Positions 14,860 through 49,566 of a stretch of DNA of 64,000 nt are shown here, piece after piece. Where the stretch lies: IMG/VR virus record IMGVR_UViG_3300046733_000629; one strand, written 5' to 3'. Position 1 is the stretch's first letter. Each line of letters begins with the position of its first letter. Made by a program: the position numbers and the translations under genes. Below the pieces are notes generated by a model, which saw only the letters and a program-made list of their open reading frames with translations, did no database searches and was not told the DNA's origin. The DNA is from a virus (Duplodnaviria > Caudoviricetes).

Positions 14860-15153
14860 ATGCCAATTGAGAGAAAAGACAGGTCCTTCGATCTGATCTT
14901 TGATCAAGTATCAATGGACCATATTCCGGCTGAATACATAAAGGAGATTATGGTTGATTTAGGTACTGGAGAAAGGATCACGTTGACTAAAGATGATTTA
15001 TTAATGATTAAAAATAAGTCAGCAGATGATATCATTGCCGCACTAACGGTTGACTCAATGTCTAACATTAGTTTGAAGCTTGACTATAGTGCAATTAAAT
15101 CTGATGTACTACGTGGAGTGACAGGATTTTTAGGACAACATTTTGACAAATAG
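14860..15153 (+). CDS. Hypothetical protein
   Basis: 97 aa ORF with GGGG RBS. Confidence 0.65.
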   Translation: MPIERKDRSFDLIFDQVSMDHIPAEYIKEIMVDLGTGERITLTKDDLLMIKNKSADDIIAALTVDSMSNISLKLDYSAIKSDVLRGVTGFLGQHFDK

Positions 15154-15817
15154 TAATAGTAATATCTGGCTATGCGGTATACCAGGATCTAGATGGAGCG
15201 GAATTGATATACAATTGCGTTCTGTCTTACCTTCTGATCGTTCAGATGAAACACCAGATAGAACACAATACCACAGAGCGTTTGATCCAAATGACCCTAA
15301 CAATGGGCATCGTGGTAGCTATTGGGGCCCTGGTATGGGCTGTGGCGAAGACTGGGTAGACTTTAACTTTTTAACAAAACATAAATTACAAGACGATATC
15401 AACAATGTATTTTCTGGAGAAGGTTATCGTATTATTAAAAGTCATTTCTTTGCAAGGCATTTTAACTTAGATTTTATATGGAATAACTTTCCAGGTGATA
15501 AAATCATACTAGTTTATAGAGAACCACAAAAAAGTTTTGCTTGGTGGAGTGAAGTTATGTGCTTTGATGAAACACATTATCCAGATTACCGTCCAGGCTA
15601 TAAAAACTACGATAGAATGTGGGAAATACTATGGCAAGAAAGTTCTAAGATTACAGACTTTGCACTTAGAAAGAATTTAAATTTCCACACCTTTGATCTT
15701 AATCTATTTAACGAATGGGAAGGATTTGACTTTGACACCGCACAACATTTCAATGGGATAAATACTGATAAGCATAAAGATGTTTATATAGCATCTGCTA
15801 CAATCCCGGAGAAGTAA
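15143..15817 (+). CDS. Sulfotransferase-fold (P-loop-like) protein
   Basis: N-terminal CGIPGSRWS loop, IIKSH and KIILVYREP resemble the 5'-PSB, KxH and 3'-PB motifs of sulfotransferases. Confidence 0.5.
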   Translation: MTNSNSNIWLCGIPGSRWSGIDIQLRSVLPSDRSDETPDRTQYHRAFDPNDPNNGHRGSYWGPGMGCGEDWVDFNFLTKHKLQDDINNVFSGEGYRIIKSHFFARHFNLDFIWNNFPGDKIILVYREPQKSFAWWSEVMCFDETHYPDYRPGYKNYDRMWEILWQESSKITDFALRKNLNFHTFDLNLFNEWEGFDFDTAQHFNGINTDKHKDVYIASATIPEK

Positions 15818-16522
15818 ATGACATCACCCTTTAAAACGCCTTGGCACTTTGACAAATTTAGAAAAGATGAAGAAGGCGAATACGTAAAGATTGTAGGAAT
15901 CTTAGATGTAGATACAGTTTCAGACATTGTTAAGGCTCGTAGCAAGACTATGCAAAATCAACCTTACAATGAACAAAGATATGAACATGCCGCTAATAAG
16001 AAAAGCGATAATCATATTGAAGAAGATAAAGAAAACCCAGATGGCAAACCAGATGCTACAATGTTTAGAAAAATAAACTTTGATAAGTATCCAGGAGAGT
16101 TTCCACAATTCACAAAAATAGTAGACTTTTTAGCATTTGATACAAGTGAAAAATTAACTTGTAAATTTAATGATCAATATCCTAATGACCAGCTGATGTG
16201 GCATATTGATAATTTACCAGGTAACCCACGTATGGATCGTGTTATTGGCAATCCAGAATTTAAGAAAGCAAGTGGGAATAAAATTAGATTTTTAATTACA
16301 TTAGAAGATTGGGAACCTGGACAGGTATTTCAGTTTGGTAATAGAGTATACACACAATGGAAAGCTGGTACAATATTTACATGGGAATGGAGTACACTAC
16401 CTCACCTAACATGGAATGGTAGTTGGACTAAAAGACCATGCTTACAATTAACAGGAACTGCAACAGACAAGACTTGGGAAATAGTAAGAAACGGATCAGC
16501 TGATCACACATACAAATTTTAA
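15818..16522 (+). CDS. Fe(II)/2OG oxygenase-like (cupin) protein
   Basis: MWHIDN (HxD), LPHLTWN (distal H), RPCLQLTG. Confidence 0.65.
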   Translation: MTSPFKTPWHFDKFRKDEEGEYVKIVGILDVDTVSDIVKARSKTMQNQPYNEQRYEHAANKKSDNHIEEDKENPDGKPDATMFRKINFDKYPGEFPQFTKIVDFLAFDTSEKLTCKFNDQYPNDQLMWHIDNLPGNPRMDRVIGNPEFKKASGNKIRFLITLEDWEPGQVFQFGNRVYTQWKAGTIFTWEWSTLPHLTWNGSWTKRPCLQLTGTATDKTWEIVRNGSADHTYKF

Positions 16523-16552: not shown

Positions 16553-17977
16553 ATGGCAGATAATAAACTACCAAGCGATACTTTTTGTATCCTACCTTGG
16601 ATTCACCTTTCAACAAGACCAGACGGCAGTATGCGTGTATGTTGTACGGCTAACGCATCAAGTGTTGGAGCAACCAACGACAAAGAACATGGCGGCAGAG
16701 TTGGTATTGTTAGAACAGAAGATGGAAGACCAGCAAACTTAAATAACAGCGATCTAAATAGTTCGTGGAATAATAGCTATATGAGAAGTGTCAGACAAAT
16801 GATGCTTAAAGGCGATAAGCCTGCTAGTTGTTTAAAATGTTATAAAGAAGAAGATGCAGGACACAGATCAAAAAGACAATGGGAAACAGATTACTGGATT
16901 AAAGACGGTATTGATGTAGAACAATTAGTAAAGGAAACTTACGAAGATGGAAGTACTGATAGTAAATTACGGTATATTGATATCCGTATGGGGACGAAAT
17001 GTCAGTTGGGGTGCGTTATGTGTTCTCCACATGATAGTTCCGGCTGGGTAAAAGATTGGAATAAATTATATCCACAAATTACAAACGAGTCATTAAAAGA
17101 AACTATGACTTGGGAAAACAAAGGTAAAGAATTTGGTGCTAGTTATAATTGGCACAAAGACAATCCTGTATTTTGGGAACAATTTTATGCACAGATTCCA
17201 TATATTAGACAATTATATTTTGCTGGTGGTGAATCAACTGTTATTGAAGAACATTACGATATCTTAGATAAAGTTATTGAAATGGGATATGCACATCAAA
17301 TCGAAGTGCGTTATAATAGTAATGGTATTGAAATTCCAGATAGACTATTAGAGCAGTGGAAACATTTTCAAAAAGTAAGATTCCATTATAGTGTAGATAG
17401 CATTGAAGGTATGAATGATTATATTAGATACCCAAGTGAATGGGAACATAATCTAAAACAGTTTGAACTACTAGATACTAGAACAAGTAATAATGTAGAA
17501 ATTACTATTGCTTGTGCAGTTAATGCATTAAACATTCATTATATTCCAGACTTCCTTAAATGGAAACTACAACATGGATTTAAGAAAACAAACATGTGGC
17601 CTTTTGGTGCAGGTGGTATTAACTATCATTTTGTATATTGGCCAGGACACTTAAATGTTAAAGTGCTACCAGATGAATTCCTAGATAAGACTGAAGCTAA
17701 GTACGAAGAATTTATTGAATGGTGGAAAGAAAATTGGGAACTAGGTGTTCCTAGTTGGCACAAAGGCAAAGTATCATACGAGAAATGGCTAGATGCTAGT
17801 TACGGAATTAAACGACTCAGAGGCATGATTAGTTTTGCCCGTAGTGAAGATTGGAGCAGAAGACTTCCTGAATTCAGAGAATACATTAATAAATTAGATG
17901 AATTAAGAGGCACAGACTTCCGTGCTACCTTCCCTGAAATGGCATATCTTCTCGATGAGCCAGATGAAAAGCTATAG
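16553..17977 (+). CDS. Radical SAM protein with N-terminal twitch-type domain
   Basis: FCILPW..MRVCC..CLKC at N-terminus; CQLGCVMC; FAGGE. ATAAATA at 16528-16534 upstream. Confidence 0.92.
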   Translation: MADNKLPSDTFCILPWIHLSTRPDGSMRVCCTANASSVGATNDKEHGGRVGIVRTEDGRPANLNNSDLNSSWNNSYMRSVRQMMLKGDKPASCLKCYKEEDAGHRSKRQWETDYWIKDGIDVEQLVKETYEDGSTDSKLRYIDIRMGTKCQLGCVMCSPHDSSGWVKDWNKLYPQITNESLKETMTWENKGKEFGASYNWHKDNPVFWEQFYAQIPYIRQLYFAGGESTVIEEHYDILDKVIEMGYAHQIEVRYNSNGIEIPDRLLEQWKHFQKVRFHYSVDSIEGMNDYIRYPSEWEHNLKQFELLDTRTSNNVEITIACAVNALNIHYIPDFLKWKLQHGFKKTNMWPFGAGGINYHFVYWPGHLNVKVLPDEFLDKTEAKYEEFIEWWKENWELGVPSWHKGKVSYEKWLDASYGIKRLRGMISFARSEDWSRRLPEFREYINKLDELRGTDFRATFPEMAYLLDEPDEKL

Positions 17978-18180: not shown

Positions 18181-19431
18181 ATGGAACTTAGACCCAAAAC
18201 TGTTAGAGAAAAAATAGAAGAACTTCCAACAAAAAGTTATTGTGCATATGCATGGTCAGGTGCAGCAATAGGACCAACCGGTGATGTATTTCCATGTTGT
18301 AGATGGCAAGGACCTCACACTCAAGGTGACCCTAACGTTCCAAACATTAAAGATGGGTTAGTAGCAGCCAGAGAAGGAAAATATTTTTCTAGAATAAGAG
18401 AGCAAATGATCAATGGAGAATATCCTTCTGGTTGTGCTAAATGCTGGAGAATAGAAAAGAAAAGATTAGAAGAAGAAGATGCAGGAATTCCTAGCCCACA
18501 GGATAGTGTACCTAGAGTACAAATTGGTCACAGAATAAAAGTAACATCAACTAAACCTCAAACTGAAAAGATTAGATACTTAGAAACAGGTGTTAGTAAC
18601 TTGTGTAATATGGCATGTGTAATGTGTGGACCATTAGCAAGTAGTACAATATTTTCAATAAAAAATCCAGGTGTAAAAGTTCCCAAAGGCTTTCACCAAG
18701 ATAATACTAACATTGATGATGACTTATCAGAATTACGTTATTTAAAATTTGTAGGTGGTGAGCCTATGTTAGAAAAGAAACATGATGACTTACTAGAAAT
18801 GGTTATTAACCAAAACGCTGATCCTTCTCAACTAGAAATGGAATACCATACTAATGCAAGTGTATTTCCTAGTGAACGTGTTATAGCATGTTGGAAGAAA
18901 ATAAAACTAGTAAGAATTATTTTTAGTTTAGATGGAGTAGGTGACAAAGTTAAACTTCAAAGGCCAGGAAAATATGTTTGGCAAGATTTAGAAGATACTG
19001 TAGATAAGTATGTAGCTATAACTAATGAAGTCAATATAGAATTTTCATCCAATACAGTATTAACTTCATTGAATATAGGACAAGGAATTGATACAGTAAA
19101 ATGGCTTTATAAAAAAGTAGGTAAATGTACGTTAGGTTGGTTTAATGTTAACCCAGAAGTTATGCCAAAGGTATCATCAAAGTATTTAAATCATAGAAAC
19201 CTAAGTAAAGAAACTAAAGAAAGAATTAAAAAAGAAATAGCTGATTTTAAACAATCAGAACACCCGGCATTAAAGACACCAATTGCTAAAATTTTAGATA
19301 TTATTCTACATCACATAGATGAGCATGGTGACTTAGACGAAGACTTGACCAGAGAATTGATTTTAGAAAAACATACTAATAAAGATAGATGGAAACACTT
19401 TGGTGAAGAATTAAAAAATTTAGATATATAG
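18181..19431 (+). CDS. Radical SAM protein with N-terminal twitch-type domain
   Basis: YCAYAW..VFPCC..CAKC; CNMACVMC; FVGGEP. Confidence 0.92.
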   Translation: MELRPKTVREKIEELPTKSYCAYAWSGAAIGPTGDVFPCCRWQGPHTQGDPNVPNIKDGLVAAREGKYFSRIREQMINGEYPSGCAKCWRIEKKRLEEEDAGIPSPQDSVPRVQIGHRIKVTSTKPQTEKIRYLETGVSNLCNMACVMCGPLASSTIFSIKNPGVKVPKGFHQDNTNIDDDLSELRYLKFVGGEPMLEKKHDDLLEMVINQNADPSQLEMEYHTNASVFPSERVIACWKKIKLVRIIFSLDGVGDKVKLQRPGKYVWQDLEDTVDKYVAITNEVNIEFSSNTVLTSLNIGQGIDTVKWLYKKVGKCTLGWFNVNPEVMPKVSSKYLNHRNLSKETKERIKKEIADFKQSEHPALKTPIAKILDIILHHIDEHGDLDEDLTRELILEKHTNKDRWKHFGEELKNLDI

Positions 19432-19439: not shown

Positions 19440-19976
19440 ATGAAATACATTTTAGTTGCTCTCAAAGAAGAGCTACCAGACCATGATTTACCTTCATCAG
19501 AATTCCAAGTATGGTATACTGGTGTTGGAAAAGTAAACGCATCTATATTTGCTACGTTAGCATGTATACAAAAAGACTGTGAAGCTGTTATTAATTACGG
19601 AACAGCAGGTACATTAAAACCTGAACTAGCCGGACAGTTACTACAAATAGGTACAGTTAGACAACGTGATATGGATGCAAGACCACAAGCAGAATTAGGT
19701 GTTACACCTTTTGATAATTCAGGATTTGATGGTGATATAGAACTTAGTAACAGTGCATACATATTAAGCACAGGTGATAACTTTGTAACGTCAGCACCAG
19801 AACTTGAAAGTGATTGTGTTGATATGGAAGCATATGCAATTGCCAAAGTATGTAAACACTTTCAAAAGCCATTTATATGTTATAAATATATTAGTGATTT
19901 AGCTGATGAGAATGCAGCAAAGACTTGGGTCGAAAATCAATCTAAAGGAGCTGATGCTTTTATAGCAATGACATAA
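19440..19976 (+). CDS. mtnN: 5'-methylthioadenosine/S-adenosylhomocysteine nucleosidase (PNP_UDP_1 family)
   Basis: TGVGKVNA, INYGTAG, STGDNFV, VDMEAYAIA, KYISDLAD motifs. Confidence 0.85.
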   Translation: MKYILVALKEELPDHDLPSSEFQVWYTGVGKVNASIFATLACIQKDCEAVINYGTAGTLKPELAGQLLQIGTVRQRDMDARPQAELGVTPFDNSGFDGDIELSNSAYILSTGDNFVTSAPELESDCVDMEAYAIAKVCKHFQKPFICYKYISDLADENAAKTWVENQSKGADAFIAMT

Positions 19977-19977
19977 T

Positions 19978-21231
19978 ATGAGTGGATTCTGTGCATTACC
20001 ATTTGTTCAATATAGTACATACAACGGAGGTCGTTTTAGATTATGTTGTATGGCTAAAGAACCTACTGAACTTGTTAATCAAGAGAAGCTAGGTATTGAT
20101 GGTACATGGAATCACAAATATATAAAAGAAGTAAGACGTAAAATGACTGCTGGTGAGAAACTACCAGAGTGTATTGAATGTCATCATTTAGAGCGTAATG
20201 GAATAATGAGTTCACGCCAATGGGAAAACAAAGTATGGGCAGATGTTATTGATGATATAGTAGCAGATGCATCAGCTAATGATTGGAAAGTTGATCAGCC
20301 ATTACAATTTGATTTTAGACTTGGTAACTTATGCAATTTGCAATGCCAGATGTGCAACAAAGAAGCATCTCATTTAGTGAGTGTGGAACGTGCGGCAATG
20401 GTACAAAGCGGACTCGGAGCGAACCATCCTGATTGGGACGGCAATATTGCAAATAAAAAAGAAGCATTACTTCAACCAGGGATTGAATGGGAAAGTTTTG
20501 AAAGAATGTTACCTTATGCTCGTAAGATAAAACTGATAGGTGGCGAACCAACAGTAGCACAAGATATGTTTAAGTTGTTAGATATTGCAACAGAAAGTGG
20601 ACATGCTGAACATATTGAATTAAGTTTTTACACAAACATAACTAACATGCAAGACAAATGGCTTAATCAACTAGCTAAGTTTGAGAAAGTAATTGTTAAC
20701 TGTTCGTTAGAAGGAATGGGAGATATGAATGATTATTTACGTCCTCCATCTAAATGGGCAAGTGTTTGGAAGAATTTTGATAAATTAGTACAGTTTGCTG
20801 ATACTAAAGCAGGTAAGCGTATTAAGGTACGTGTTACTACAGTAAACCAAATGACCAACGCATTGCATATAACTAAGTTTTGGAAGTATATGCATGATTA
20901 CCAGATGACTAGTAATAGAGGCATTGGCATGAGTACCAATCAGTTAGTAGAGCCGGCATACTATAGCATGGCAAATGCTCCTGAATGGTTAAAGAAAGAA
21001 CAACGTGAACAGATTTTGGAATTTCTCAAAAGCATTGGCAATAGTCCGCATTTTGAGCAATATGAAGAACCTCTTATGGAGGTTGTTAATTTTAGTTTGG
21101 ATACTGAGCATAAGTATGATGCTGACATCATGCAACAGTATGTTCAAATCACAGAAAACTACGACAGATTCAGACAACACGATATTACCAAAGTGTCGCC
21201 CGAATTTGAAAGAATTAAAAGAGACCTCTGA
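19978..21231 (+). CDS. Radical SAM protein with N-terminal twitch-type domain
   Basis: FCALPF..FRLCC..CIEC; CNLQCQMC; LIGGEP. Confidence 0.92.
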   Translation: MSGFCALPFVQYSTYNGGRFRLCCMAKEPTELVNQEKLGIDGTWNHKYIKEVRRKMTAGEKLPECIECHHLERNGIMSSRQWENKVWADVIDDIVADASANDWKVDQPLQFDFRLGNLCNLQCQMCNKEASHLVSVERAAMVQSGLGANHPDWDGNIANKKEALLQPGIEWESFERMLPYARKIKLIGGEPTVAQDMFKLLDIATESGHAEHIELSFYTNITNMQDKWLNQLAKFEKVIVNCSLEGMGDMNDYLRPPSKWASVWKNFDKLVQFADTKAGKRIKVRVTTVNQMTNALHITKFWKYMHDYQMTSNRGIGMSTNQLVEPAYYSMANAPEWLKKEQREQILEFLKSIGNSPHFEQYEEPLMEVVNFSLDTEHKYDADIMQQYVQITENYDRFRQHDITKVSPEFERIKRDL

Positions 21232-21288
21232 TATAACTGAAGCAGAAACTTATCGTCAGTGGGATTGTAAATGGAGTATTGATTTTTA

Positions 21289-22434
21289 ATGAAGTATGGA
21301 TTTAACAGTTGGAATAGTTGGGATAGACTAAAAGAATGCATGGTTGGCAATGTATATCCTACAGATTTCTTTTCAGTATATAAAGATAAAAGAATAGGTG
21401 ATGCATTAGAAAAAGTAAATGAAGATTCTAGACAAGATATTGCCAACCTTATTAATATTTTAAAAAGTGCAAGTGTCAAAGTAATACAAACGCCTAGTAA
21501 GTTTATAGACAAACGAGGCAATACAATTGATGATGTAAATAAAAACATTGAATATAGTAATACAATTCAAAAACCAATGCTTAGTCCTAGAGATGATTTT
21601 ATTGTAATGGGTGATACACTAGTTAATACAAGTGCTAATCATGCATATAACACATGGGGACCGTGGCAAGGTTGTGATGACTATATTAATCTTACTCGTG
21701 ATTTTGATGAAAAGTGGAATGATCCAGAAATGACTAAGTTCAAGGAAACATTAATGACGGATGAGTTTGATGTAGATGCACCTTGTATTATGCGAGCAGG
21801 TAAAGATATACAAGTTGATATAAGCCATCATAACAAAGGAACTATGGAATTTGCTAATACTTGGTTACCTAAACATATGCCTAATTTTAGAGTAAACACA
21901 ATAGAAATGGGTGGACACAGTGATGCAGTTATTTGTTTAGTTAAGCCAGGATTAATTATAAGTCATAGAAAAGTTAATAATTATGATGAACTATATCCTG
22001 GATGGGAAGTAATATATGTAGACAGACCAATGGACGAATATATAGATGCATATTGGGAACAAAAGAATAATATACCTAGTGTAATTAATTACTGGATAGA
22101 TGGTCAAGAAAGTAATAATGTATTACATGAATTTATAGGCAAGTGGATGCAAGTAGGACATGTTTACGAAACACATTTTAATGTTAATTGTTTAAGCATA
22201 GACGAAAGTACACTTGTATGTAATTATTATGATAAAGAACTAGCACAGAAATTAAAAAAACATAATGTTGAATTAGTAGAAGCACCAATGAGACACAGAC
22301 ATTTTTGGGATTGTGGAGTACATTGTGCAACAGTTGATTTGATAAGAGAAGGTGAATGTAAGGATTATTTTCCAACTAGAAAACAAGGACAATTTTTTGG
22401 AAAGCCGTGGGGAAATAATGAGACAAGAAGATAA
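21289..22434 (+). CDS. Amidinotransferase (pentein; GATM/StrB1-like)
   Basis: NSWNSWDRLKE, SPRDD, GHSD, CGVHCAT with the catalytic Cys. Confidence 0.88.
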   Translation: MKYGFNSWNSWDRLKECMVGNVYPTDFFSVYKDKRIGDALEKVNEDSRQDIANLINILKSASVKVIQTPSKFIDKRGNTIDDVNKNIEYSNTIQKPMLSPRDDFIVMGDTLVNTSANHAYNTWGPWQGCDDYINLTRDFDEKWNDPEMTKFKETLMTDEFDVDAPCIMRAGKDIQVDISHHNKGTMEFANTWLPKHMPNFRVNTIEMGGHSDAVICLVKPGLIISHRKVNNYDELYPGWEVIYVDRPMDEYIDAYWEQKNNIPSVINYWIDGQESNNVLHEFIGKWMQVGHVYETHFNVNCLSIDESTLVCNYYDKELAQKLKKHNVELVEAPMRHRHFWDCGVHCATVDLIREGECKDYFPTRKQGQFFGKPWGNNETRR

Positions 22435-23641
22435 ATTTGGATTTAAAAGTTACAACAGTTGGGATCCATTAAAAAAAGTATTAATAGGAAGTACATTACC
22501 TAAAGACTTTTTTGCAGATTTTCCAGATAAAAAAGTAGCAGATGCTATGACCAAAGTAAATGAAGAAACACGTGAAGACTTGGATTACTTTGCAAAAGTT
22601 TTAGAAGAATCGTATGGTGTGCAAGTTTACAGAATGCCTGAAGCTTGTGTACTAAAAGACAGAAGATATAACAGTGTAGCAGAATTTATAGACTCTAATG
22701 GATATATTCCTAAACCATTTAATGCACCTAGAGACGATCAAATTATATTTGGTGAACATATGATTACAGGAACTACAAATCCTGTACATAGAATATTTCA
22801 CGGAACAAAAGAAGATACACATAATATATTCGACAACTATGCACCTTGGGCTGGCTGTAGTGATTTAATTGATATTGCTGATCCTCAACAAGAATTAAAC
22901 ATATTTGATGCAGTAGGTAAACCAGGCTTTACAATGAGTTGGCCTAGTATTATGAGAGCTGGCAAAGACATTATAATTGACATACACGACTTCAACGGTC
23001 CTACAAGACATTTAGCAGAAGCATGGGTAGATAAATTTAATGAGAAGTTTGGATATGATTTTAGAATAAACACAACAACAATGGGTGGTCATACTGATGC
23101 AGTTATGGCACTTGTAAAACCTGGACTTATAATAAGTCATACTAACGTAAACAAATATGAACAAACATTTCCTGGGTGGGATGTTATTAAAATACAACGA
23201 GCTCACAATGATCATACAACAGCATGGAATGACTTTCGTATATCTGAAAAAGATAAATGGAGAGGATCTAAAAAAAGACCTGTAGCAGATTATTGGATTG
23301 CTGGAGAAGAACATAATGTTGCATTAAATAAGTTTATTGATTTATATATGCATCCAAGCGTAGGTAGTTGCTTTGAAACTAACTTTGATGTTAATTGTTT
23401 AAGCATAGATGAGAATACAGTAGTTGCTAGTGGTCCTAGTAAAGTATTAGAGGACAAACTTGGCGAGCATAAGGTAGATGTAATTACTTGCAATATGCGT
23501 CATAGATTTTTCTGGGATGGCGGATTACATTGTGCAACTGTAGACTTATATCGCGAAGGCGATTGTGAAGATTATTTTCCAGAACGTACTACTGGTATTG
23601 ATTTTGGAAAACTATGGGGCAATAACGAACTACGCAGGTAA
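22418..23641 (+). CDS. Amidinotransferase (pentein), tandem paralog
   Basis: SYNSWDPLKK, APRDD, GHTD, GGLHCAT; ATG 22418 within ORF 22352..23641. Confidence 0.88.
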   Translation: MRQEDKFGFKSYNSWDPLKKVLIGSTLPKDFFADFPDKKVADAMTKVNEETREDLDYFAKVLEESYGVQVYRMPEACVLKDRRYNSVAEFIDSNGYIPKPFNAPRDDQIIFGEHMITGTTNPVHRIFHGTKEDTHNIFDNYAPWAGCSDLIDIADPQQELNIFDAVGKPGFTMSWPSIMRAGKDIIIDIHDFNGPTRHLAEAWVDKFNEKFGYDFRINTTTMGGHTDAVMALVKPGLIISHTNVNKYEQTFPGWDVIKIQRAHNDHTTAWNDFRISEKDKWRGSKKRPVADYWIAGEEHNVALNKFIDLYMHPSVGSCFETNFDVNCLSIDENTVVASGPSKVLEDKLGEHKVDVITCNMRHRFFWDGGLHCATVDLYREGDCEDYFPERTTGIDFGKLWGNNELRR

Positions 23642-25983: not shown

Positions 25984-25997
25984 ATAAATATATTTAT
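25984..25997. promoter_or_regulatory. Palindrome ATAAATATATTTAT (late-promoter-like motif on both strands)
   Basis: Perfect 14-bp inverted repeat in the only divergent junction inside the cluster. Confidence 0.5.
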
Positions 25998-41549: not shown

Positions 41550-42717
41550 ATTTTGCTACATGCCTTGGCATGCAATCACGTTGAGTGCAAATGGTGATAT
41601 TAAGCCATGCTGTCAATTTAGTAATAAAGGTCGTTTACCTAATACACAACATGAAACTATTATGGAAAACTTTAATAGTGAACGTATGCAAGAACTACGT
41701 AAAGACTTTCTAAAAGGTGTACAACCTAGTGCTTGCAATAGTTGTTGGGAGAGAGAAGATTTAGTAGGACAAAGTAGACGCCTGTGGTTTAATAAAAAGT
41801 TTATGAAGTTTGATGCTGATTTTATAAATGGCAATACACCTGATACATATGATGTACCAAATCCAAAGTTCTATCAAGCAGATATTAACTTATCAAATGT
41901 GTGTAATTTAAAATGCCGTATGTGTGGAAGTTGGGCAAGTAACAGTTGGTTCGAAGAAGAAATAGCGTTAGCTAAAATAGACAAGCGTTATGAAAAGAAT
42001 GAAAGAGCAGTTCCATTACAACAATATGGATTAGAAGACTTACGCAATATGCTACCTCATTTAAAAGATGTAAAGCGTATAGACTTTAAAGGCGGAGAGC
42101 CTATGATGGCTAAACATCATAATCAATTCTTACAATGGTTGATTGATGAAGATATGACTAACATTGAATTATTTTACACAACAAACGGAACAGTACAAAA
42201 TCCTAAAATACTGAACTTGTTAAAACAGTTTAAACGTGTTAGTATATGTTTTAGTATAGAAGGTACTGGAGAACTATATAGATATATTAGAGGTGGCAAA
42301 TACGAACTAGAAGATTTTGAATTCACACTATCAGAATATGATAAGTTACCAAATGTACAAATTATGTTTAATGTAACATTACAAAATTATAATGTATTTA
42401 ACTTACCAGACTTGCATTTTTTCTTGCATGAAATGGAAGATAAATACGAGAGAGTAAGTGCTAACAGTAGTTTCACTACTATCTGTAACAAACCAGCATA
42501 TTTAAGTCCAATGAACTTGCCAGATGATTTACGAGATAAAGCAATTAAAAACTTATCCTTGTTTGAAGATTTTGACAAGTTAGTTGAGAGTATGAAAGCT
42601 AGAACATTTAATCCTGAACTATGGGATACATTTATTAACTTTACAAACGACTTAGATAAAATGCGAGGAGATAGTGTAGTTAAAGCTGTACCTCAACTAA
42701 AGGAATATTTTAAATGA
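41542..42717 (+). CDS. Radical SAM protein with N-terminal twitch-type domain
   Basis: FCYMPW..IKPCC..CNSC; CNLKCRMC; FKGGEP. Confidence 0.92.
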   Translation: MNKFCYMPWHAITLSANGDIKPCCQFSNKGRLPNTQHETIMENFNSERMQELRKDFLKGVQPSACNSCWEREDLVGQSRRLWFNKKFMKFDADFINGNTPDTYDVPNPKFYQADINLSNVCNLKCRMCGSWASNSWFEEEIALAKIDKRYEKNERAVPLQQYGLEDLRNMLPHLKDVKRIDFKGGEPMMAKHHNQFLQWLIDEDMTNIELFYTTNGTVQNPKILNLLKQFKRVSICFSIEGTGELYRYIRGGKYELEDFEFTLSEYDKLPNVQIMFNVTLQNYNVFNLPDLHFFLHEMEDKYERVSANSSFTTICNKPAYLSPMNLPDDLRDKAIKNLSLFEDFDKLVESMKARTFNPELWDTFINFTNDLDKMRGDSVVKAVPQLKEYFK

Positions 42718-43436
42718 GAAAACTTGTAGGTATTGAAGATAATCATGCACCTAAGGATGAGTTACTACGAGTAGAATGGAATTTAGGAAAACGTTGTAAT
42801 TACAATTGTAGTTACTGTGGTAACGAACTACATAATAAAACAAGCGAGCATATGCCTTGGGAAGTTTATACTAATACAATAGATAAAATTGTAGAAGCAG
42901 CAATGGGCAAAAAGATTAAAATTAGTTTTACAGGCGGTGAGCCATTTGTACATCCAAAGTTTATTGATATGTTAAAGTATGCTAAAGAAAATGGTGTATA
43001 TAGATGTAGTGTTACAACAAACGGAAGTCCACCACCTAAGATATATAAGAAAGCATTGCCATATTTACATTATGTTGTAATCAGTTATCATTTTGAATTT
43101 GCATATCATGAGAAAGTTATTAATAACATTACAGGTATGTGGAAAGAGATACAAGAATATAGAGCTAAAGATGATTACAAAGGCATGCATGTTCATATTA
43201 TGGCTTTACCAGGACACTTGCCACAATGGAAAGAAATCATAGACGAATTAAAAGAATGTGGAGTTGAGTATACTATAAGAAAAATTAGACCACGTGTTAA
43301 CATGGATCGTACAGGTTGGAATAAACCATATGCTGACGGTATGTTAGGGCAACATCCTAAACACGAAGAAACAGAAAAGTTTGCAGGACAATATTATAGT
43401 AATGAAGAAGAGGAGTGGTTAAAAGTAAATGCCTGA
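42714..43436 (+). CDS. Radical SAM core domain (N-half of a split rSAM-SPASM)
   Basis: WNLGKRCNYNCSYC; SFTGGEP; paralog of the N-terminal part of 48391..49566. Confidence 0.9.
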   Translation: MRKLVGIEDNHAPKDELLRVEWNLGKRCNYNCSYCGNELHNKTSEHMPWEVYTNTIDKIVEAAMGKKIKISFTGGEPFVHPKFIDMLKYAKENGVYRCSVTTNGSPPPKIYKKALPYLHYVVISYHFEFAYHEKVINNITGMWKEIQEYRAKDDYKGMHVHIMALPGHLPQWKEIIDELKECGVEYTIRKIRPRVNMDRTGWNKPYADGMLGQHPKHEETEKFAGQYYSNEEEEWLKVNA

Positions 43437-44736
43437 TACTAATTATCATAGAGACATATACACCAGAAAACGAAAAGTTAAAGAATGGATGGCTGAACCT
43501 GGAAATAATTTTTGTGCATTGCCGTTTATTCATATGGCAATTGAAGCAGATGGGCAGGTAAGACCTTGTTGTATGGGAGATCCTTTTGACAATATTAATG
43601 TTTCAGGCGGTACAATAGAGAGTGCATATAATCACCCTGAAAGACAAGAATTTGTACAAGCATTTAAAGACAACAAACAACATCCAAAGTGTAATGTATG
43701 TTGGAATGCATCATATAGTATACGTAGTAGATATTCATCAAATGACATGTCTATAAAATTTACTGAATCAGTAATGGAAGGCAATACCCCAGAAGCATCA
43801 TTAAAATGGTTAGAAATTAAACCCGGAAACAGATGTAATTTAAAATGTAGAATATGTGGGATACACAATAGCAGTACATGGACAAAAGATCATCATATTC
43901 TAAAAGAACACAAGAGCGTAAAATTTAAAGATTCATTTGCATTTAAATATACACAAAAATGTAATTGGGTCGATGATCCTAACTTCTGGAATGATATAAA
44001 TCAGTTAGATGAAATACAAGATTTACACTTTATGGGTGGTGAACCTTTTATGGTATTAGAGCATTTTCAGTTACTTGAGAAATTAGTAGCTAGTCGAGAT
44101 TGTAGTGATATCACTATTAGATATAATACAAATGGTACTTATTATCCAACAGCAGAACAATGGAAATTGTATGAGAATTTTAGACAAGTAAAATTTCAAG
44201 TAAGTATTGATGATGTTGGTCCAAGATTTGAGTACGCTCGTAAAGAAGCAAAGTGGGATCTAGTAAAAGAAAATCTAAGAAAGTTTAGAGAAGCAAAACT
44301 ATTATGCGAAGTTAAAGCAAAAAATGATCCCATCAATTATCCAGTAACAAAAGTTAGAGCAAATTTAGACCCAACAGTAAGTATGTTTAATATATTTTAC
44401 TTAGATGTTATTGAAGAAGAATTTAATAACATGGGTTGGCCTTTGGGAAGTCATGCAGATCATTATGTCTATAATGGACCAAATAATATAAGAAACTTGC
44501 CAGATGAATATAAACATATAATAACTGAAAAATATAAAGACACTAAAAGTACTTGGATACCAATGGCAGTAGATTATATGTGGACAGCCAAAAGTGATTA
44601 TGAACAGTGGATGATGTTTGTAAAACAGACTAAAGAAACAGACACAGTAAGAAATGAAAGTTTTAGTGATGTATATCCTGAATTTTATAATCTTATAAAA
44701 AGTGAATATGATAGGTATGAACCAATAGATGAATAA
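43429..44736 (+). CDS. Radical SAM protein with N-terminal twitch-type domain
   Basis: FCALPF..VRPCC..CNVC; CNLKCRIC; FMGGEP. Confidence 0.92.
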   Translation: MPDTNYHRDIYTRKRKVKEWMAEPGNNFCALPFIHMAIEADGQVRPCCMGDPFDNINVSGGTIESAYNHPERQEFVQAFKDNKQHPKCNVCWNASYSIRSRYSSNDMSIKFTESVMEGNTPEASLKWLEIKPGNRCNLKCRICGIHNSSTWTKDHHILKEHKSVKFKDSFAFKYTQKCNWVDDPNFWNDINQLDEIQDLHFMGGEPFMVLEHFQLLEKLVASRDCSDITIRYNTNGTYYPTAEQWKLYENFRQVKFQVSIDDVGPRFEYARKEAKWDLVKENLRKFREAKLLCEVKAKNDPINYPVTKVRANLDPTVSMFNIFYLDVIEEEFNNMGWPLGSHADHYVYNGPNNIRNLPDEYKHIITEKYKDTKSTWIPMAVDYMWTAKSDYEQWMMFVKQTKETDTVRNESFSDVYPEFYNLIKSEYDRYEPIDE

Positions 44737-45094
44737 TTTTAAAAATATAATAACACATTACAGTGATGGTACAAGTGAAGAAGATAATGTAAATAATGTA
44801 ATGGCACGAGATGAAAATGATTTCCGTGGTTGGGAATGTTGGGCTGGTGTACAAAATATTACAATAAGCAATACAGGTGATGTGTATAGAGCAATATGCA
44901 AAGTAGGAGGCAAACTAGGAAACATATATGATGGATTTGAAATGCCACTTGAAACAATTATTTGTAACAAGCCTAGATGTATATGTGCCGCTGATGTACA
45001 ACTATCAAAAGCACAACCAGAGCATGTTACAAAATTAAGAGTAGGAAAAGATTGGATGGACGATGTTTATAGTTCGGGTATAAAAGATGAGTAA
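44729..45094 (+). CDS. Stand-alone SPASM-type domain (C-half of the split rSAM)
   Basis: FRGWECWAG..GDVYRAIC..LGNI..CNKPRCICAAD matches the C-terminus of 48391..49566. Confidence 0.82.
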   Translation: MNNFKNIITHYSDGTSEEDNVNNVMARDENDFRGWECWAGVQNITISNTGDVYRAICKVGGKLGNIYDGFEMPLETIICNKPRCICAADVQLSKAQPEHVTKLRVGKDWMDDVYSSGIKDE

Positions 45095-46394
45095 ACAAAG
45101 CAATTATGAAAAGTTCTACGAGAACGCTATAGGAAAAATTGGCAAACTGCCAGTGGATAAAGAATCATTTTGTCCATTGCCATTTGTACATGTAAGCACT
45201 ATGCCGCATGGAGAAGTTAAACTATGTTGTAGAGCACAACCACCAAAGAATGGAAAAAATCCAAATGTTAAAGATGAAGATTTTAATCTAAAAGATTATT
45301 GGCACAGTGAGTATATGAATGAGATACGAGATTCCTTAATCACAGGTGAGAAACATCATCAGTGTAAAAATTGTTGGAAGATGGAAGATAATAACATTGT
45401 TAGTTTACGTATGAATAGATTAACAGATTTAATGGAAACTCCATCAACCAGAAATGCAGTTGAAAAATATTTAGTAGATAGAGAAGTAGATTTTAAAATT
45501 CCACTGATAGAACTTAAACTAAGCAACGTATGTAATTTTAAATGTCGTATGTGTTGGCCAAAAGACAGTTCAAAGTGGATGCAAGATTGGGATAAAGTAA
45601 AACAATTCTATAATAAAAATGACAGAGAATATGTAGATGAAATTGTAGACAGTAATGATTTACGTAAATCTAGAGTAATGAACTTGTATGAAAAAGATGA
45701 ACATTTTGTTCCACAATTATTAGAAGTAATGGAAACTGTAGAAGAGATTGAATTTGCAGGCGGTGAGCCACTTATGGATCCTATTCATTATCGTGTATTA
45801 GACAGTATTCCACATCCAGAAAACGTTACATTAAAATACAGTACAAACCTAAGTATTATGAAAATGGGTAAACATAGTGTTATTGACTTATGGAAAAAAT
45901 TTAAAAGCATTAAACTAACAATCAGTATTGATGGACACAAAGAGCTTAATGCTAAAATAAGAAGAGGGTCTGATTGGGAACTATTAAAAAGTAACATTAA
46001 CTTAGTTAAGAAAGAATTAACTAATATTGATGTTATCAAAGGAACTACATGTATTAGCGGAATGAATGCAAAAGAACTAGGCGAAACAGCTGAAGCTATT
46101 GTATTCGAATTAGGTATACACTGGCATACAAGCCGTGTACAATGGCCTGATTTCTTACATGCTAACGTATTACGCCCAACGGAGCTTCAAGGTGGAATAG
46201 ACGGCTTAAAACGGGTATTTGATAGCTTAAACCTACCAGAAAGACGTATGGTAGGTAGACGCTTTATGTTTGAAACACATTTAAATGGTGCTATGCATTG
46301 GCTACAATCTTGTATTGACAATAACAAGCACGAAGAAAAATACGAAGCATTTTGTAAGTTTAATCAGACAATTACGGACATTGATGATGACTAA
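45087..46394 (+). CDS. Radical SAM protein with N-terminal twitch-type domain
   Basis: FCPLPF..VKLCC..CKNC; CNFKCRMC; FAGGEP. Confidence 0.92.
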   Translation: MSKQSNYEKFYENAIGKIGKLPVDKESFCPLPFVHVSTMPHGEVKLCCRAQPPKNGKNPNVKDEDFNLKDYWHSEYMNEIRDSLITGEKHHQCKNCWKMEDNNIVSLRMNRLTDLMETPSTRNAVEKYLVDREVDFKIPLIELKLSNVCNFKCRMCWPKDSSKWMQDWDKVKQFYNKNDREYVDEIVDSNDLRKSRVMNLYEKDEHFVPQLLEVMETVEEIEFAGGEPLMDPIHYRVLDSIPHPENVTLKYSTNLSIMKMGKHSVIDLWKKFKSIKLTISIDGHKELNAKIRRGSDWELLKSNINLVKKELTNIDVIKGTTCISGMNAKELGETAEAIVFELGIHWHTSRVQWPDFLHANVLRPTELQGGIDGLKRVFDSLNLPERRMVGRRFMFETHLNGAMHWLQSCIDNNKHEEKYEAFCKFNQTITDIDDD

Positions 46395-47433
46395 GAAGTT
46401 AGCAATATTTGGTAATAGCTTTGGAACGCAACTCGCAGACCCTGCAAAAAGAGTATGGGAGTTAATGCCAAGCAAAGAGAGAAAAATAGAATTTAGAAAA
46501 GCATGGTATAATGAAATGCCTAGCTGGATTAGAATGCTTAAAAATGAATATGATGTAGTGCATACATTTGCTGTTGGCAATACAGGTATAGATTATAGTT
46601 ACTTACAATTTTTAAGATATCACAATGAGTATGATACTGTAATATTCATAACAACACGAGCATGGACTCATTCACATATACAATATGGTAATCAAGTAGA
46701 GGAATGGCGAGGCGAAGCTTCTATACATGATATTGATTTTATAAGACCCGAATGGATGTTAGATGAAAGACCAATTAATTGTTACAAAAAGTTCGCTGAA
46801 AAAATACTTAAATCAAATAATAAACCAACTGGTCCTGAAATGCCTATATATGATGAAGATGCAATAAACTTAATGAAAGTATATGTTGACTACGGTACAC
46901 ATGTTGTTCCCAAATTTCCATTTAGAGATCTGTTACAATGGGCATCAATGATTGATAATATAATTAGAACTAGACCAGATGTTAAAATGATAAACACTAG
47001 TCCAGAAGAGTTTAATGATCTTGGAATTAAAATACCAATTGGAAAAATACAAACTTTACATAGAATGGAAAATGATATTTTACTAGGCAAACATGCAGAG
47101 TATGAATTTAGAAAAGCTCAGGGTTTACCGTTAGATGAAGATGGGAAACTTGTTGCTGGATTAGATGATGCATTGCAACAGATGCCTGTTTTAAAATTGT
47201 ACAGTGATGCTAGAGTAGGACACTTATCAACAGAAGCACATAGGTTAATATATGCTGAAGTAAAAGATTTATTAGCATCCAACAATACTTGGTTAGATTT
47301 TGATTTAGATGCTATGGTTAAAAAACTTATGGAAATGAATTTAGATAAAAAGAGATATTTTGTTGCAGAACACAAAGACATTAAATCATGGGCTAAATAT
47401 AATAACTTATGGATTGATGAGGAAGTAAAATGA
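46387..47433 (+). CDS. SGNH/GDSL-like hydrolase or acyltransferase
   Basis: Block I IFGNSF; AVGNTG; C-terminal DARVGHLSTEAH (DxxxxH variant). Confidence 0.6.
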   Translation: MTKKLAIFGNSFGTQLADPAKRVWELMPSKERKIEFRKAWYNEMPSWIRMLKNEYDVVHTFAVGNTGIDYSYLQFLRYHNEYDTVIFITTRAWTHSHIQYGNQVEEWRGEASIHDIDFIRPEWMLDERPINCYKKFAEKILKSNNKPTGPEMPIYDEDAINLMKVYVDYGTHVVPKFPFRDLLQWASMIDNIIRTRPDVKMINTSPEEFNDLGIKIPIGKIQTLHRMENDILLGKHAEYEFRKAQGLPLDEDGKLVAGLDDALQQMPVLKLYSDARVGHLSTEAHRLIYAEVKDLLASNNTWLDFDLDAMVKKLMEMNLDKKRYFVAEHKDIKSWAKYNNLWIDEEVK

Positions 47434-48401
47434 GTATAGGAATTTTTGGCGATAGTTTTGCAAGGTGTAAAGTTCCATTAATGCATCCTTTAGACCCAAG
47501 TAATATTAAAACAGTAATACATACAAATGATGAATATATTAACTTCCAACAAAAAGTAGAAGCACTGATGCCAACTTGGGCTAAGTTATTACCAGATACT
47601 ACAAATTTTGCAGCAGGCGGTACAGATTTATCTTGGAGTTTTTTAAAGTTTTTAGAACACCATGAAAAGTATGATAACATTATTTTTGTAGTTACATCGC
47701 CAAAAAGAATAACACTAAATGCTCCTCATATGTATGTGCCAAGTGACAGAGGAAGTAAATTTGGAGTAAATTTGATAACATCAGTAAGTGCTAATCAATC
47801 ACTTCTTAAAAAAGAAAAGTTTTGTAATTCTGTAAATGAAGAACATCTATATGTACGTGATGCTTACGATGCAATTAACAAATGGCAGACTCATATTCAA
47901 CCAGAGTTTCCTGAAAGAGATTTCTTACATTACGGAATATTAATTAATGAGTTGCAACGTATAAGACCAGATATTAAATTAATAAAAGCATTTTGTCACC
48001 CTACAGCAGATGATGAATGGAAGATGAAAGATTTTGGCAAAAAAAATTACTATCCATACAAGCATTTTGATAATATTCCACTTGACAATAAAGCTGAATA
48101 CCTGCATAATATAGTAAAAGTTGAAGATTCTAATTATTTTGAAGAACAAATAGCACAACCTAATAAATGGCATGATTGCAGATCAGGACATATAAGTATT
48201 ACTTCGCATGTAATATTATATAAAATAATAACAAAGTGGTTAAAAACTAATGATACATGGCTTAACTTTGATATAGAAGAATTTAAAAATAATAAAGTAG
48301 ATGCAAATGATAGCTTTATGGATAAAAGTAAATCGTTACCAGAATGGCAAGATGCATTCCTACAAAGACGTATTAATGATGGAAAAATAAATGGAAGATA
48401 A
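47430..48401 (+). CDS. SGNH/GDSL-like hydrolase or acyltransferase
   Basis: IFGDSF; AAGGTDL; DCRSGHISITSH; paralog of the previous gene. Confidence 0.65.
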   Translation: MSIGIFGDSFARCKVPLMHPLDPSNIKTVIHTNDEYINFQQKVEALMPTWAKLLPDTTNFAAGGTDLSWSFLKFLEHHEKYDNIIFVVTSPKRITLNAPHMYVPSDRGSKFGVNLITSVSANQSLLKKEKFCNSVNEEHLYVRDAYDAINKWQTHIQPEFPERDFLHYGILINELQRIRPDIKLIKAFCHPTADDEWKMKDFGKKNYYPYKHFDNIPLDNKAEYLHNIVKVEDSNYFEEQIAQPNKWHDCRSGHISITSHVILYKIITKWLKTNDTWLNFDIEEFKNNKVDANDSFMDKSKSLPEWQDAFLQRRINDGKINGR

Positions 48402-49566
48402 AGATTTAAAATGGAGTGAATATGATTTCACTAAAACACCGTACGATAAACTAGTACGTGTTGGACAACGAAATATGTTGTATAGAGACATGTTTACTGT
48501 TAGCTGGTTAATAGGAAGATTTTGTAATTACAATTGTAGTTATTGTTGGCCTTATGCTAGAAGTAGTAGAAAAGATCATAGACCAACTGAACTTAATTTA
48601 AAAACAATTGATGAGATTAAGCGTCAAGCACGTGAAAGAGGATTCAATAGTTTTCACTTTAGTTTAAGTGGGGGTGAGCCTACATTCCATCCTGGCTATT
48701 TAGATATGTTAAAACATTTAAGTGATGATGCACATAATACAAATTATACAAGTGTGCATATGACTTCAAACTGTAGTCGTAATATGAAATGGTTTCAAAC
48801 ATATTGTGATTATGCTAGTAAGTTTCACAGAGCAAGTATAACAGCAAGTTTACATGTTGAACACGTAAACACACCTGAAAAAATGCAAGACCTTGCAGAC
48901 AAATTAATACTATGTCAAGAGCATGATGTACAAGTAACAATTAATATGGTTATGGTACCTGCATTATTTGATGAATATTATGACAACGCATTATTCTTCC
49001 ATAATCAAGGAATCAATGTTACACTAAAACCTCAATCAGATCCAACAGCAAGTAGAATTGTTGATGGTTATACAGATGAAATGAAAAGAAAATTACACAA
49101 TGGTATGCCACAACGTAGTTACACTGAAGCTAAAGCACAACAAAAGCAATTAGTAACTAGACCTAAGCCTACATTTAAAATTGACCCTGATGATCATTTC
49201 CGTAAACAGACAGCATCAGTTCCGTGGAACATGCAGGTGGAATTTAGAGATGATAAAGGTGATCCGTGGTATATGGATCAAGCTGAAAGATTTAATGCAT
49301 TTAATTTTAATCAATTTGAAGGTTGGGAATGTAGTAGTGGATATCGTAGTATAATTATACGTGAACCAGATGGATCAGTTAAAAGGTCTTACTCATGTCA
49401 TGATCAACCTTTAGGTAATATTGAAACTGGATTTAAATTGTTTGATGGTCCAAAAGTATGTACTACAAAATCTTGTGTATCAAGTGCTGATAGTAAAATA
49501 CCAAAACGAGCACCAGGAACAGCTATGCCCCTTTGGCCCGGTGATGATACTTTCTTTGAAGATTAA
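48391..49566 (+). CDS. Radical SAM protein with C-terminal SPASM-type domain
   Basis: CNYNCSYC; SLSGGEP; FEGWECSSG..KRSYSC..LGNI..CTTKSCVSSAD. Confidence 0.92.
   Translation: MEDKDLKWSEYDFTKTPYDKLVRVGQRNMLYRDMFTVSWLIGRFCNYNCSYCWPYARSSRKDHRPTELNLKTIDEIKRQARERGFNSFHFSLSGGEPTFHPGYLDMLKHLSDDAHNTNYTSVHMTSNCSRNMKWFQTYCDYASKFHRASITASLHVEHVNTPEKMQDLADKLILCQEHDVQVTINMVMVPALFDEYYDNALFFHNQGINVTLKPQSDPTASRIVDGYTDEMKRKLHNGMPQRSYTEAKAQQKQLVTRPKPTFKIDPDDHFRKQTASVPWNMQVEFRDDKGDPWYMDQAERFNAFNFNQFEGWECSSGYRSIIIREPDGSVKRSYSCHDQPLGNIETGFKLFDGPKVCTTKSCVSSADSKIPKRAPGTAMPLWPGDDTFFED

Follow-up and report, generated by a model that had tools for sequence, protein, structure and literature searches.

Modules carrying several enzymes of the radical S-adenosylmethionine (rSAM) type have been noticed in phage genomes, without analysis, in 2010 (PMC2853527), 2017 (PMC5332604) and 2020 (PMC7029224). 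The Campylobacter T4-like phages CP220 and CPt10, reported in 2010, have 11-12 rSAM genes and carry an interchangeable module (PMC2853527). The large, myovirus-like marine genome TARA_ERS488813_N000010, also T4-like, combines 12 rSAM genes with PaaD and an A-type carrier (PMC5332604; Nishimura et al. 2017). Pelagimyophages have their rSAM cassettes in the host-recognition island, with fibres and glycosyltransferases (PMC7029224). Finally, the cyanophage S-SCSM2R has a cluster termed 'antibiotic synthesis genes', and an amidinotransferase and a hydroxylase are reported from its virion proteome (PMC12801897). Here we describe a 34-kb cluster of rSAM and accessory genes at positions 15143-49566 of the viral record IMGVR_UViG_3300046733_000629, analysed as a stretch of 64,000 nt (the window; positions are numbered on the whole window, and open reading frames (ORFs) are named by their first coordinate). 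We find that an abundant, uncultured marine jumbo phage has in this cluster a conserved and functional island for biosynthesis or tailoring, and that it is one instance of a recurring toolkit shared with Bdellovibrio-like bacteria, not a unique phage invention.

The cluster comprises 35 ORFs, 34 of which lie on the plus strand. At 22 of the 34 junctions the neighbouring ORFs overlap, by 1-128 nt, in line with the original prediction of co-oriented, tightly joined genes; the longest overlaps probably reflect over-long start calls. The CxxxCxxC motif is present in 15 ORFs, all of which match the Pfam family Radical_SAM (E <= 5e-6), three of them falling slightly below its gathering score. The predicted number of rSAM genes was thus correct, and related contigs carry ~25 each, numbers above those of any other virus record encountered in the analysis. 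On sequence criteria, the 15 are assigned as 11 paralogues with an N-terminal twitch domain and four classical rSAM/SPASM proteins, two of the latter being divided between separate ORFs. Base composition across the window is AT-rich (GC 0.31-0.37), and the GC skew, positive up to ~50 kb and negative thereafter, tracks the gene strand.

The phage origin of the DNA is supported by its flanks, which encode a T4-type clamp loader, an exonuclease, ThyX, a prohead-protease-like ClpP, a PRPP synthase and a MoxR/VWA pair, by its relatives in IMG/VR and by its occurrence in virome runs. A cellular origin is ruled out by the same observations. A megablast search of the flank against cultured phages gave no match, and a search for Gp23 gave none either, its controls included. 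The largest related contig (G001, IMGVR_UViG_3300009126_000404) measures 184 kb at a CheckV completeness of 51%, and homologues of the cluster gene 23710 sit on contigs of 227-330 kb, which argues for a jumbo phage lineage. Synteny of the cluster is conserved across related phage contigs, in at least 20 IMG/VR loci, with gains and losses at the level of cassettes. For all cluster genes with an orthologue of at least 60% identity, dN/dS is 0.04-0.31 at dS ~1, which refutes relaxed selection on the paralogues. Near-identical cluster DNA was found in 16 seawater runs from ~15 studies, viromes among them. Metatranscriptome libraries of three studies contain contigs 100% identical to many cluster genes; these are merely suggestive of transcription, since DNA carry-over is possible. 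Given the strong purifying selection, the wide spread in seawater and the investment in Fe-S assembly, ferredoxin, MetK and by-product clearance described below, the rSAM chemistry must matter for infection.

The 11 N-terminal-twitch paralogues score above the curated cut-off (170 bits) of NCBIfam NF033640, a subfamily model named 'twitch domain-containing radical SAM protein' (N_Twi_rSAM), which they match end to end at 199.8-413.1 bits. All are on the plus strand, at 16553-17977 (413 bits), 18181-19431 (208 bits), 19978-21231 (302 bits), 29467-30717 (254 bits), 32077-33213 and 33197-34456 (219 and 319 bits), 38011-39063 and 39032-40273 (200 and 381 bits), 41515-42717 (317 bits), 43429-44736 (266 bits) and 45087-46394 (302 bits). 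In each of them, as is seen in 18181, a SPASM-like Pfam match (residues 12-97) precedes the Radical_SAM core; a four-Cys auxiliary domain at the N-terminus, CxxxCxxC, GGEP and a C-terminal extension are common to the paralogues and NF033640. Their pairwise identity is only 21-31%. Of the CxxxCxxC and the SAM-binding GGE motifs, C137, C141 and C144 as well as G209-G210-E211 are invariant in 50 sequences. As for the auxiliary ligands, both alignments keep C89 and C92 without exception, all 11 paralogues have C19, and at least 90% of sequences contain C37 and C38. This CC pair of the twitch motif is missing from the paralogue at 29467-30717, a gene that nevertheless ranks with the most constrained (dN/dS 0.04-0.05); a coordination site on its auxiliary cluster may be open.

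With eleven copies in 34 kb and ~18 per related contig, the N_Twi genes are expanded to an extreme degree; G001 alone has 18 above the cut-off among 25 rSAM-type matches. The NF033640 family itself is large, with at least 8,282 clusters at 50% identity (E <= 1e-30), and orthologues of 39032 form more than 120 clusters in metagenomes. Tandem N_Twi fusions of 800-1,400 aa are part of the family. We also observed two- and three-unit fusions as a 916-aa open frame in G001 (19460-22159) and as proteins of 770-1,400 aa in the protein library. Literature searches found no characterised N-terminal-twitch rSAM or member of NF033640. A structural model of 39032 (AF2, pLDDT 94.4) had CteB, SkfB, anSME and BlsE as its best Foldseek matches (TM 0.33-0.43), and its wider neighbours (TM 0.3-0.45) included SuiB, viperin and MoaA; BtrN was not among the top 50.

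In a phylogenetic tree, the 11 paralogues form ancient lineages interleaved with bacterial, Vibrio-phage and Ralstonia-phage members, and only 16553 has a well-supported sister group in Bdellovibrionota (clade support 100/100). Vibrio phage K566 carries a four-copy N_Twi cassette of its own. The deep, interleaved lineages rule out a recent phage-specific duplication burst. They also fit an alternative in which there is no single pathway, and independent radical enzymes, serving for example host takeover, counter-defence or the production of viperin-like nucleotide analogues, are kept in one variable region. This would likewise accommodate the N_Twi genes found outside the main cluster, at four further places in G001, the gene content that differs cassette by cassette between relatives, and the weak viperin-family matches of the rSAMs. 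We nevertheless consider it improbable. The shared strand and the overlapping junctions argue against it, as does the absence of a convincing plus-strand terminator inside the cluster, where our scan found none. Complementary enzymes, an aminotransferase and then an amidinotransferase, sit together, and the combination of N_Twi, 28406-type, 48391-type, pyridoxal phosphate (PLP)-like, SDR-like and amidinotransferase genes recurs in Bdellovibrionota and in other phages.

The four classical rSAM genes are also on the plus strand. The protein encoded at 28406-29467 has a C-terminal SPASM domain (Pfam Radical_SAM and SPASM) and relatives in 28 Bdellovibrionota loci and in phage CP220. The last gene of the cluster, at 48391-49566 (Radical_SAM, E 8e-14), has a C-terminal Cys-rich domain and a dN/dS of 0.04-0.09. 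The third is split into a Radical_SAM core at 25996-26676, 28% identical to 28406, and a free SPASM ORF at 26663-27016, which matches Pfam SPASM with 25.1 bits. The fourth has its core at 42714-43436 and its C-terminal domain at 44729-45094, interrupted by the N_Twi gene 43429, which is joined by 8-nt overlaps to both flanking halves. The C-terminal half has no Pfam match and resembles the C-terminus of 48391 (BLASTP 1e-9); both free SPASM-type ORFs of the original prediction were thereby recovered, each by a different route. In one related locus (L008), a different sequence of ~1 kb occupies the gap between the halves 42714 and 44729, which match a single 353-aa chromosomal protein of a Bacteriovoracaceae bacterium with 30% and 47% identity. 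Their predicted complex scored 0.87, compared with 0.17 for the best control (the mark set for this score is reached by 51 of 78 solved complexes and by 2 of 108 mismatched pairs), with at least 67% of contacts in agreement between runs and a partner pLDDT of at least 78. The two halves are thus predicted to bind each other.

Besides the rSAMs, the best-defined enzymes of the cluster are three amidinotransferases on the plus strand, two in tandem at 21289-22434 and 22352-23641 (41% identical to each other) and one at 27009-28076. Although they do not match Pfam's amidinotransferase model, their profile matches HsvA, SxtG, AGAT and StrB1 (E 3e-24 to 4e-15) in two stretches covering most of the protein. 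H219, D221, H339 and C340 are invariant in the three proteins and align to the HID and HCAT motifs of HsvA/SxtG; the two motifs tested, that of the catalytic His (GGHxD) and that of the catalytic Cys (HCAT), are both present. At the level of sequence, the assignment of all three as amidinotransferases with intact catalytic residues is confirmed. Orthologues of 27009 are 89-91% identical (dN/dS 0.06-0.08), and its homologues (40-46%) adjoin the rSAM core in two Bdellovibrionota loci. HsvA, SxtG, AGAT and StrB1, their closest solved relatives, act on small-molecule amines.

The cluster further encodes a 5'-methylthioadenosine/S-adenosylhomocysteine (MTA/SAH) nucleosidase at 19440-19976 (+; PNP_UDP_1, E 2.7e-17, 63 bits), as had been proposed. 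An alignment with solved MTA/SAH nucleosidases (E 1e-11) shows that it conserves the GDxF, EMEAxAIA and ISDxAD motifs. The protein, of 178 aa, is short for its kind and scores under the NCBIfam equivalog cut-offs. Such nucleosidases clear 5'-deoxyadenosine, an inhibitory by-product of radical SAM reactions.

Insight into the possible substrate came from the bacterial relatives of the cluster. Orthologues of 16553, 56-63% identical, occur in ~30 genomes of Bdellovibrionota, where the contigs that carry them reach 3 Mb, and orthologues of 48391 (55-64%) lie beside them in 29 Bdellovibrionota loci. In Bdellovibrio sp. HCB2-146 (locus L091), where the orthologues of both genes are 58% identical, four rSAM genes are interleaved with five GT2 glycosyltransferase genes, a GT7C-like gene, a GNAT and an SDR. 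The complete Bacteriovoracaceae chromosome OZ242254 (locus L092) has ten rSAM genes of the same families together with 30707-like and 40986-like genes, with three GT2 genes, a PMT_2-type GT-C and a flavoprotein on the flanks. Further loci in Bdellovibrionota also contain genes for 27009-like amidinotransferases (40-46%), 37260-like hydroxylases and 35863-like proteins, and in Mangrovivirga an N_Twi gene adjoins a PMT GT-C. These GT2 and GT-C contexts agree with the glycosyltransferase-bearing modules of CP220, S-SCSM2R and the pelagimyophages, and a carbohydrate-type substrate is therefore favoured. We accordingly give an even chance to the reading that the island performs many radical reactions that need no oxygen, and that these act on a sugar linked to a nucleotide or lipid, on a glycan or on a cyclitol. 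The original prediction of stepwise glycan or aminocyclitol tailoring, as opposed to a pathway for ribosomally synthesised and post-translationally modified peptides (RiPPs), gains support from the GT2, GT-C and GNAT genes of Bdellovibrionota and from the glycosyltransferases of CP220 and S-SCSM2R, but it was not matched by a clear glycosyltransferase in the phage cluster. The virion surface coat that was its leading idea is a hypothesis. Its claim of novelty was somewhat overstated, since multi-rSAM phage modules were already in the literature and, with orthologues in Bdellovibrionota chromosomes, the system is not phage-specific.

In such carbohydrate tailoring, each rSAM would abstract a hydrogen atom from an unactivated C-H bond, and the twitch cluster could take the second electron, as in BtrN and anSME, to give ketones or rearranged intermediates. 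The PLP enzyme would aminate the ketones and the amidinotransferases would turn the resulting amines into guanidines. Further decoration by hydroxylation, methylation, acyl groups and sulfate could be provided by the oxygenases and the methyltransferase-like/GT-A-like, SGNH-like, SDR-like and sulfotransferase-like enzymes. A surface glycoconjugate probably carries the product, whether on the host envelope or on a phage fibre or virion protein such as 23710. If so, the cluster would matter for the way phages and hosts recognise each other in the ocean and for the exclusion of superinfection there, and would add new radical enzymology.

The accessory enzymes called upon by this scheme are recognisable to different degrees. 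The putative PLP-dependent, fold-type-I-like enzyme at 30707-31645 (+) matches Aminotran_1_2 above the cut-off (25.1 bits vs 19.7), although weakly, and has homologues (33-44%) in the Bdellovibrionota rSAM islands. Three Fe(II) oxygenases had been proposed, one of which stands firmly: the ORF at 37260-38033 (+), whose start overlaps the previous gene in an ATGA, belongs to the Asp/Asn beta-hydroxylase family of Fe(II)/2-oxoglutarate (2OG) oxygenases (Asp_Arg_Hydrox PF05118, E 1.6e-11). For 15818-16522 (+; dN/dS 0.08-0.11), the assignment as 2OG-Fe(II) oxygenase-like relies on an HxD motif and a 39% local match to S-SCSM2R gene 308, which is annotated as a 2OG-Fe(II) oxygenase and adjoins the amidinotransferase of that phage. 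The ORF taken as the third, 25131-25961, is the only minus-strand gene of the cluster (start trimmed to the second Met by our own judgement); it is 69-78% conserved (dN/dS 0.05-0.15) and possibly cupin- or 2OG-like, but Pfam, NCBIfam, PDB and PHROGs searches gave no family match.

Two ORFs at 46285-47433 and 47430-48401 (+) are paralogues (24% mutual identity) without a Pfam match, and the SGNH/GDSL-like character ascribed to them is supported by their language-model atlas neighbours, viral DUF6071 and Lipase_GDSL, and by nothing else. The nitroreductase-like flavoenzyme at 40307-40972 (+), which has a counterpart at another position in three related loci (L020-L022), can be called only weakly, as its PF00881 score of 21.3 bits lies below the cut-off of 23.5. 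The SDR-like and sulfotransferase-like proteins were recognised by eye from motifs and gained no HMM support. The former (40986-41549, +) has a Gly-rich N-terminus and YxxxK, orthologues of 90-92% identity (dN/dS 0.05-0.07) and homologues of 25-39% in Bdellovibrionota islands; the latter (15143-15817, +) has GxPGSRWSG-type and R-x-P-x-x-S-type motifs, is conserved at 70-76% (dN/dS 0.19) and has no Pfam, NCBIfam, PHROG or PDB match. Overall, PHROGs gave no match for nine accessory ORFs and NCBIfam none for ten, and PDB sequence searches gave none for 35863, 23710, 25131(-), 15143, 30707 or the 34586-family profile.

Two paralogous proteins encoded at 34586-37263 (+; 34586 and 35863), for which sequence searches gave no matches, consist of a GT-A-like N-domain and a class I methyltransferase-like C-domain, and their family is known from viruses only. 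The model of 34586 (AF2, pLDDT 86.5) shows two domains. Its N-domain (residues 14-203) has moderate similarity (Z 9-9.7) to the Leptospira glycosyltransferase 6p61, GlyE, LARGE1, SpsA and R699, and its C-domain is similar to PDB 6ulo (Z 12.3) and to EgtD and NNMT (Z 9-9.7). The protein at 23710-25122 (+) is Ser/Thr-rich with three N-terminal repeats visible; an atlas search gave no useful match, and it is considered fibre- or adhesin-like and non-enzymatic because its homologues carry Mtd_N (PF18454), Calx-beta, Reeler and cupredoxin domains. It is present in L020-L022 and missing from L018/L019. As an echo of 23710, a very large fibre-type protein with a Peptidase_S74 chaperone domain (L091 17278-21377) adjoins the rSAM/GT2 island of HCB2-146. 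Two small plus-strand ORFs complete the cluster: 28060-28413, a Trp-rich, hydrophobic, putative membrane protein recognised by eye (97% identical in L021, dN/dS 0.085), and 31632-32084, a variably present 150-aa ORF without matches in our scans (70% identical in L003 and L019).

Several observations weigh against a carbohydrate substrate. Profile, fold and motif analysis found no unambiguous glycosyltransferase in the phage cluster, and there is no GT2 in up to 184 kb of related phage contigs; a single GT-B lies ~30 kb upstream of the cluster in related contigs. The N-domain of 34586/35863 lacks a conserved DxD, its only conserved charged residues being K36, K38, E46 and H50, and glycosyltransferase activity is thus unproven. 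Distant N_Twi members are found in unrelated contexts, several of the accessory assignments are weak, and enzymes of the Asp/Asn hydroxylase family mostly have proteins or lipid A as their substrates. The nearest N_Twi folds include peptide enzymes (CteB, SkfB, anSME, SuiB) besides sugar and nucleotide enzymes (BlsE, MoaA, viperin), so that at these TM scores the Foldseek search does not discriminate between the two kinds. No nucleotide-sugar genes were seen inside the cluster. In view of the lack of a clear glycosyltransferase, the generic folds and the unrelated contexts, the scaffold may be supplied by the host or by another part of the phage genome.

Many of the same data bear on a serious rival, namely a protein target, for instance in the glycosylation or modification of fibres. 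Here the rSAMs would cross-link, epimerise or oxidise residues of a structural protein or precursor, with hydroxylation followed by glycosylation as performed by LH3 and Mimivirus R699 on collagen. The top Foldseek matches of the N_Twi model are to sactipeptide and streptide maturases and anSME, the rSAMs have weak NCBIfam matches to many RiPP maturases, and 37260 lies in the Asp/Asn hydroxylase family. The N-domain of 34586 resembles R699, LH3 and GlyE (PMC9546862), and an atlas neighbour of this protein, a viral cluster of 688-aa PF05118 proteins (score 0.83), provides a lead only. The presence of the Ser/Thr-rich, fibre-like 23710 within the cluster and of a Peptidase_S74 fibre gene next to the Bdellovibrio island fits as well. 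Even so, we judge protein modification to be unlikely. Pfam and profile scans matched no RRE/PqqD family in any of the 35 ORFs, as predicted, and inspection of the small ORFs and gaps, where precursors are hard to exclude, revealed neither a precursor peptide nor a leader peptidase or exporter; nor was a conserved small precursor-like ORF seen. The three amidinotransferases resemble enzymes of small-molecule amines, 23710 is absent from some otherwise syntenic clusters, and the GT2-rich bacterial contexts fit a polysaccharide better.

A third possibility is hypermodification of DNA or nucleotides, in which a complex side chain would be built or attached on a base of the phage genome. Thymidine hypermodification involves rSAM and PLP enzymes (PMC8989533), and the window encodes ThyX, PRPP synthase, a phosphoribosyltransferase, MazG and RpiB, which counts in its favour. 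The homologous islands, however, lie among GT2 and GT-C genes in Bdellovibrionota chromosomes. Pfam and NCBIfam scans of the cluster, which did not include dedicated models and left several ORFs unassigned, recognised no 5-hydroxymethyldeoxyuridine kinase, DNA-glycosylase-like fold or DNA-binding or DNA-acting domain. We also know of no DNA modification pathway with amidinotransferases of the AGAT/StrB1 type, and regard this possibility as very improbable.

Returning to carbohydrate tailoring, the minus strand downstream of the cluster encodes an apparent support set for Fe-S enzymes: an A-type Fe-S carrier at 59511-59909 (PF01521; also in four of five related contigs), an Nfu domain protein at 60892-61236 (PF01106), a fragment of an FTR1-like iron permease at 61556-62191 (PF03239), a 7Fe ferredoxin at 62121-62465 (Fer4 and DUF3470) and a SufT/PaaD-like DUF59 protein at 62466-62810 (PF01883). 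This set probably services the many Fe-S enzymes. Related contigs also carry MetK (G001 41917-42318, likewise G002, G004 and G005), ~17.7 kb upstream of the 16553 orthologue, and by synteny it would fall just before the start of the window. We tentatively propose, while holding it to be doubtful, that the phage supplies everything its radical chemistry needs, namely a SAM synthetase, a means to clear 5'-deoxyadenosine, Fe-S assembly and ferredoxin, and thereby makes a new class of sugar or cyclitol decoration, heavily C-H-functionalised and multiply guanidinylated, with which a phage fibre or the host envelope is adorned; each N_Twi paralogue would perform a distinct, undescribed transformation. 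If true, a family comprising more than 8,000 sequence clusters would thereby receive its first function. The question is experimentally approachable, because Bdellovibrio, which is genetically tractable, has closely related genes, and Vibrio, Ralstonia and Campylobacter phages available in culture carry small cassettes.

Scans for promoters and plus-strand terminators did not rise above shuffled controls, with the exception of three perfect TTGACA/TATAAT (sigma-70-type) sites. One of these, at 25912-25940 (+), precedes 25996 in the divergent region, another lies at 34736-34765 (+), and the third, at 50384-50356 (-), precedes the minus-strand block beside a 10-bp terminator hairpin. Across the window, the T4 late motif TATAAATA is rarer than expected (4 sites vs 13.6 expected). 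The evidence on early or late timing of the cluster is thin.

Upstream of the cluster lie two tandem alginate-lyase-like paralogues at 8110-10550 (+; C-terminal PF05426), a pair acting on polysaccharides by this match, followed, within 8110-13621 (+), by a MoxR-type ATPase and a DUF2201/VWA protein (phrog_1297, phrog_1314; DUF2201_N and DUF2201), both syntenic in L018-L022. The link of these neighbours to the cluster is uncertain. The phage also encodes an HtrA/DegP-like trypsin-fold protease with a PDZ domain at 6544-7836. Directly upstream of the cluster, a conserved ORF at 14123-14845 (phrog_15894) has a low-complexity C-terminal half rich in Pro, Thr, Ser and Ala. Linkers of this composition are typical O-glycosylation sites, and O-glycosylation of this one is speculative. 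On the other side of the cluster, the minus-strand region 54969-60433 encodes a set for nucleotide precursors, consisting of PRPP synthase, RpiB, a phosphoribosyltransferase and MazG, beside the ClpP-like protease and small DNA-polymerase-like ORFs.

We then compared the cluster with the known systems. TARA_ERS488813_N000010 resembles it by gene content, sharing the A-type Fe-S carrier and PaaD with the window; that study only counted the rSAMs as Fe-S proteins and gave no cluster anatomy, family assignment or function (PMC5332604). The CP220/CPt10 module is alike in its five rSAM genes and glycine-amidinotransferase-like gene, and CP220 module genes are detected by tblastn with 27009 and 28406. 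It differs in being much smaller (10-12 genes), in carrying two GT-A-like genes and a PAP2 phosphatase, and in that no N_Twi-type rSAM was detected with the queries used. In S-SCSM2R, whose cluster is matched by 15818 and the amidinotransferases, the genes run in the order glycosyltransferase, GT25, glycosyltransferase, sugar-aminotransferase-like, rSAM, glycosyltransferase, 2OG oxygenase, amidinotransferase and GT2. The side-by-side arrangement of amidinotransferase, 2OG oxygenase, rSAM and PLP-dependent sugar-aminotransferase-like genes is shared, whereas the single rSAM gene embedded among five glycosyltransferases is not.

Among characterised enzymes, the closest logic is that of BtrN and anSME and of the aminocyclitol pathways of butirosin and streptomycin, in which oxidation is followed by transamination and StrB1 amidination. 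Auxiliary-cluster rSAMs, a PLP enzyme and StrB1/AGAT-family amidinotransferases are found here too, and anSME is among the nearest solved folds of the N_Twi model. The auxiliary domain is N-terminal in N_Twi proteins and C-terminal in BtrN, no inositol-phosphate synthase, kinase, resistance or export genes were seen, and the number of rSAMs is, to our knowledge, far above that of any aminoglycoside pathway. Finally, the Bdellovibrionota islands differ from the phage cluster in their interleaved GT2 and GT-C genes and in the expansion of the classical rSAM-SPASM type, in contrast to the phage cluster, where the N_Twi type is expanded and a clear glycosyltransferase is lacking. Common to both are 16553 (58-63%) and 48391 (55-64%), the 28406-type and 42714/44729-type rSAMs, the 30707-like and 40986-like genes and, in some islands, an amidinotransferase or hydroxylase.

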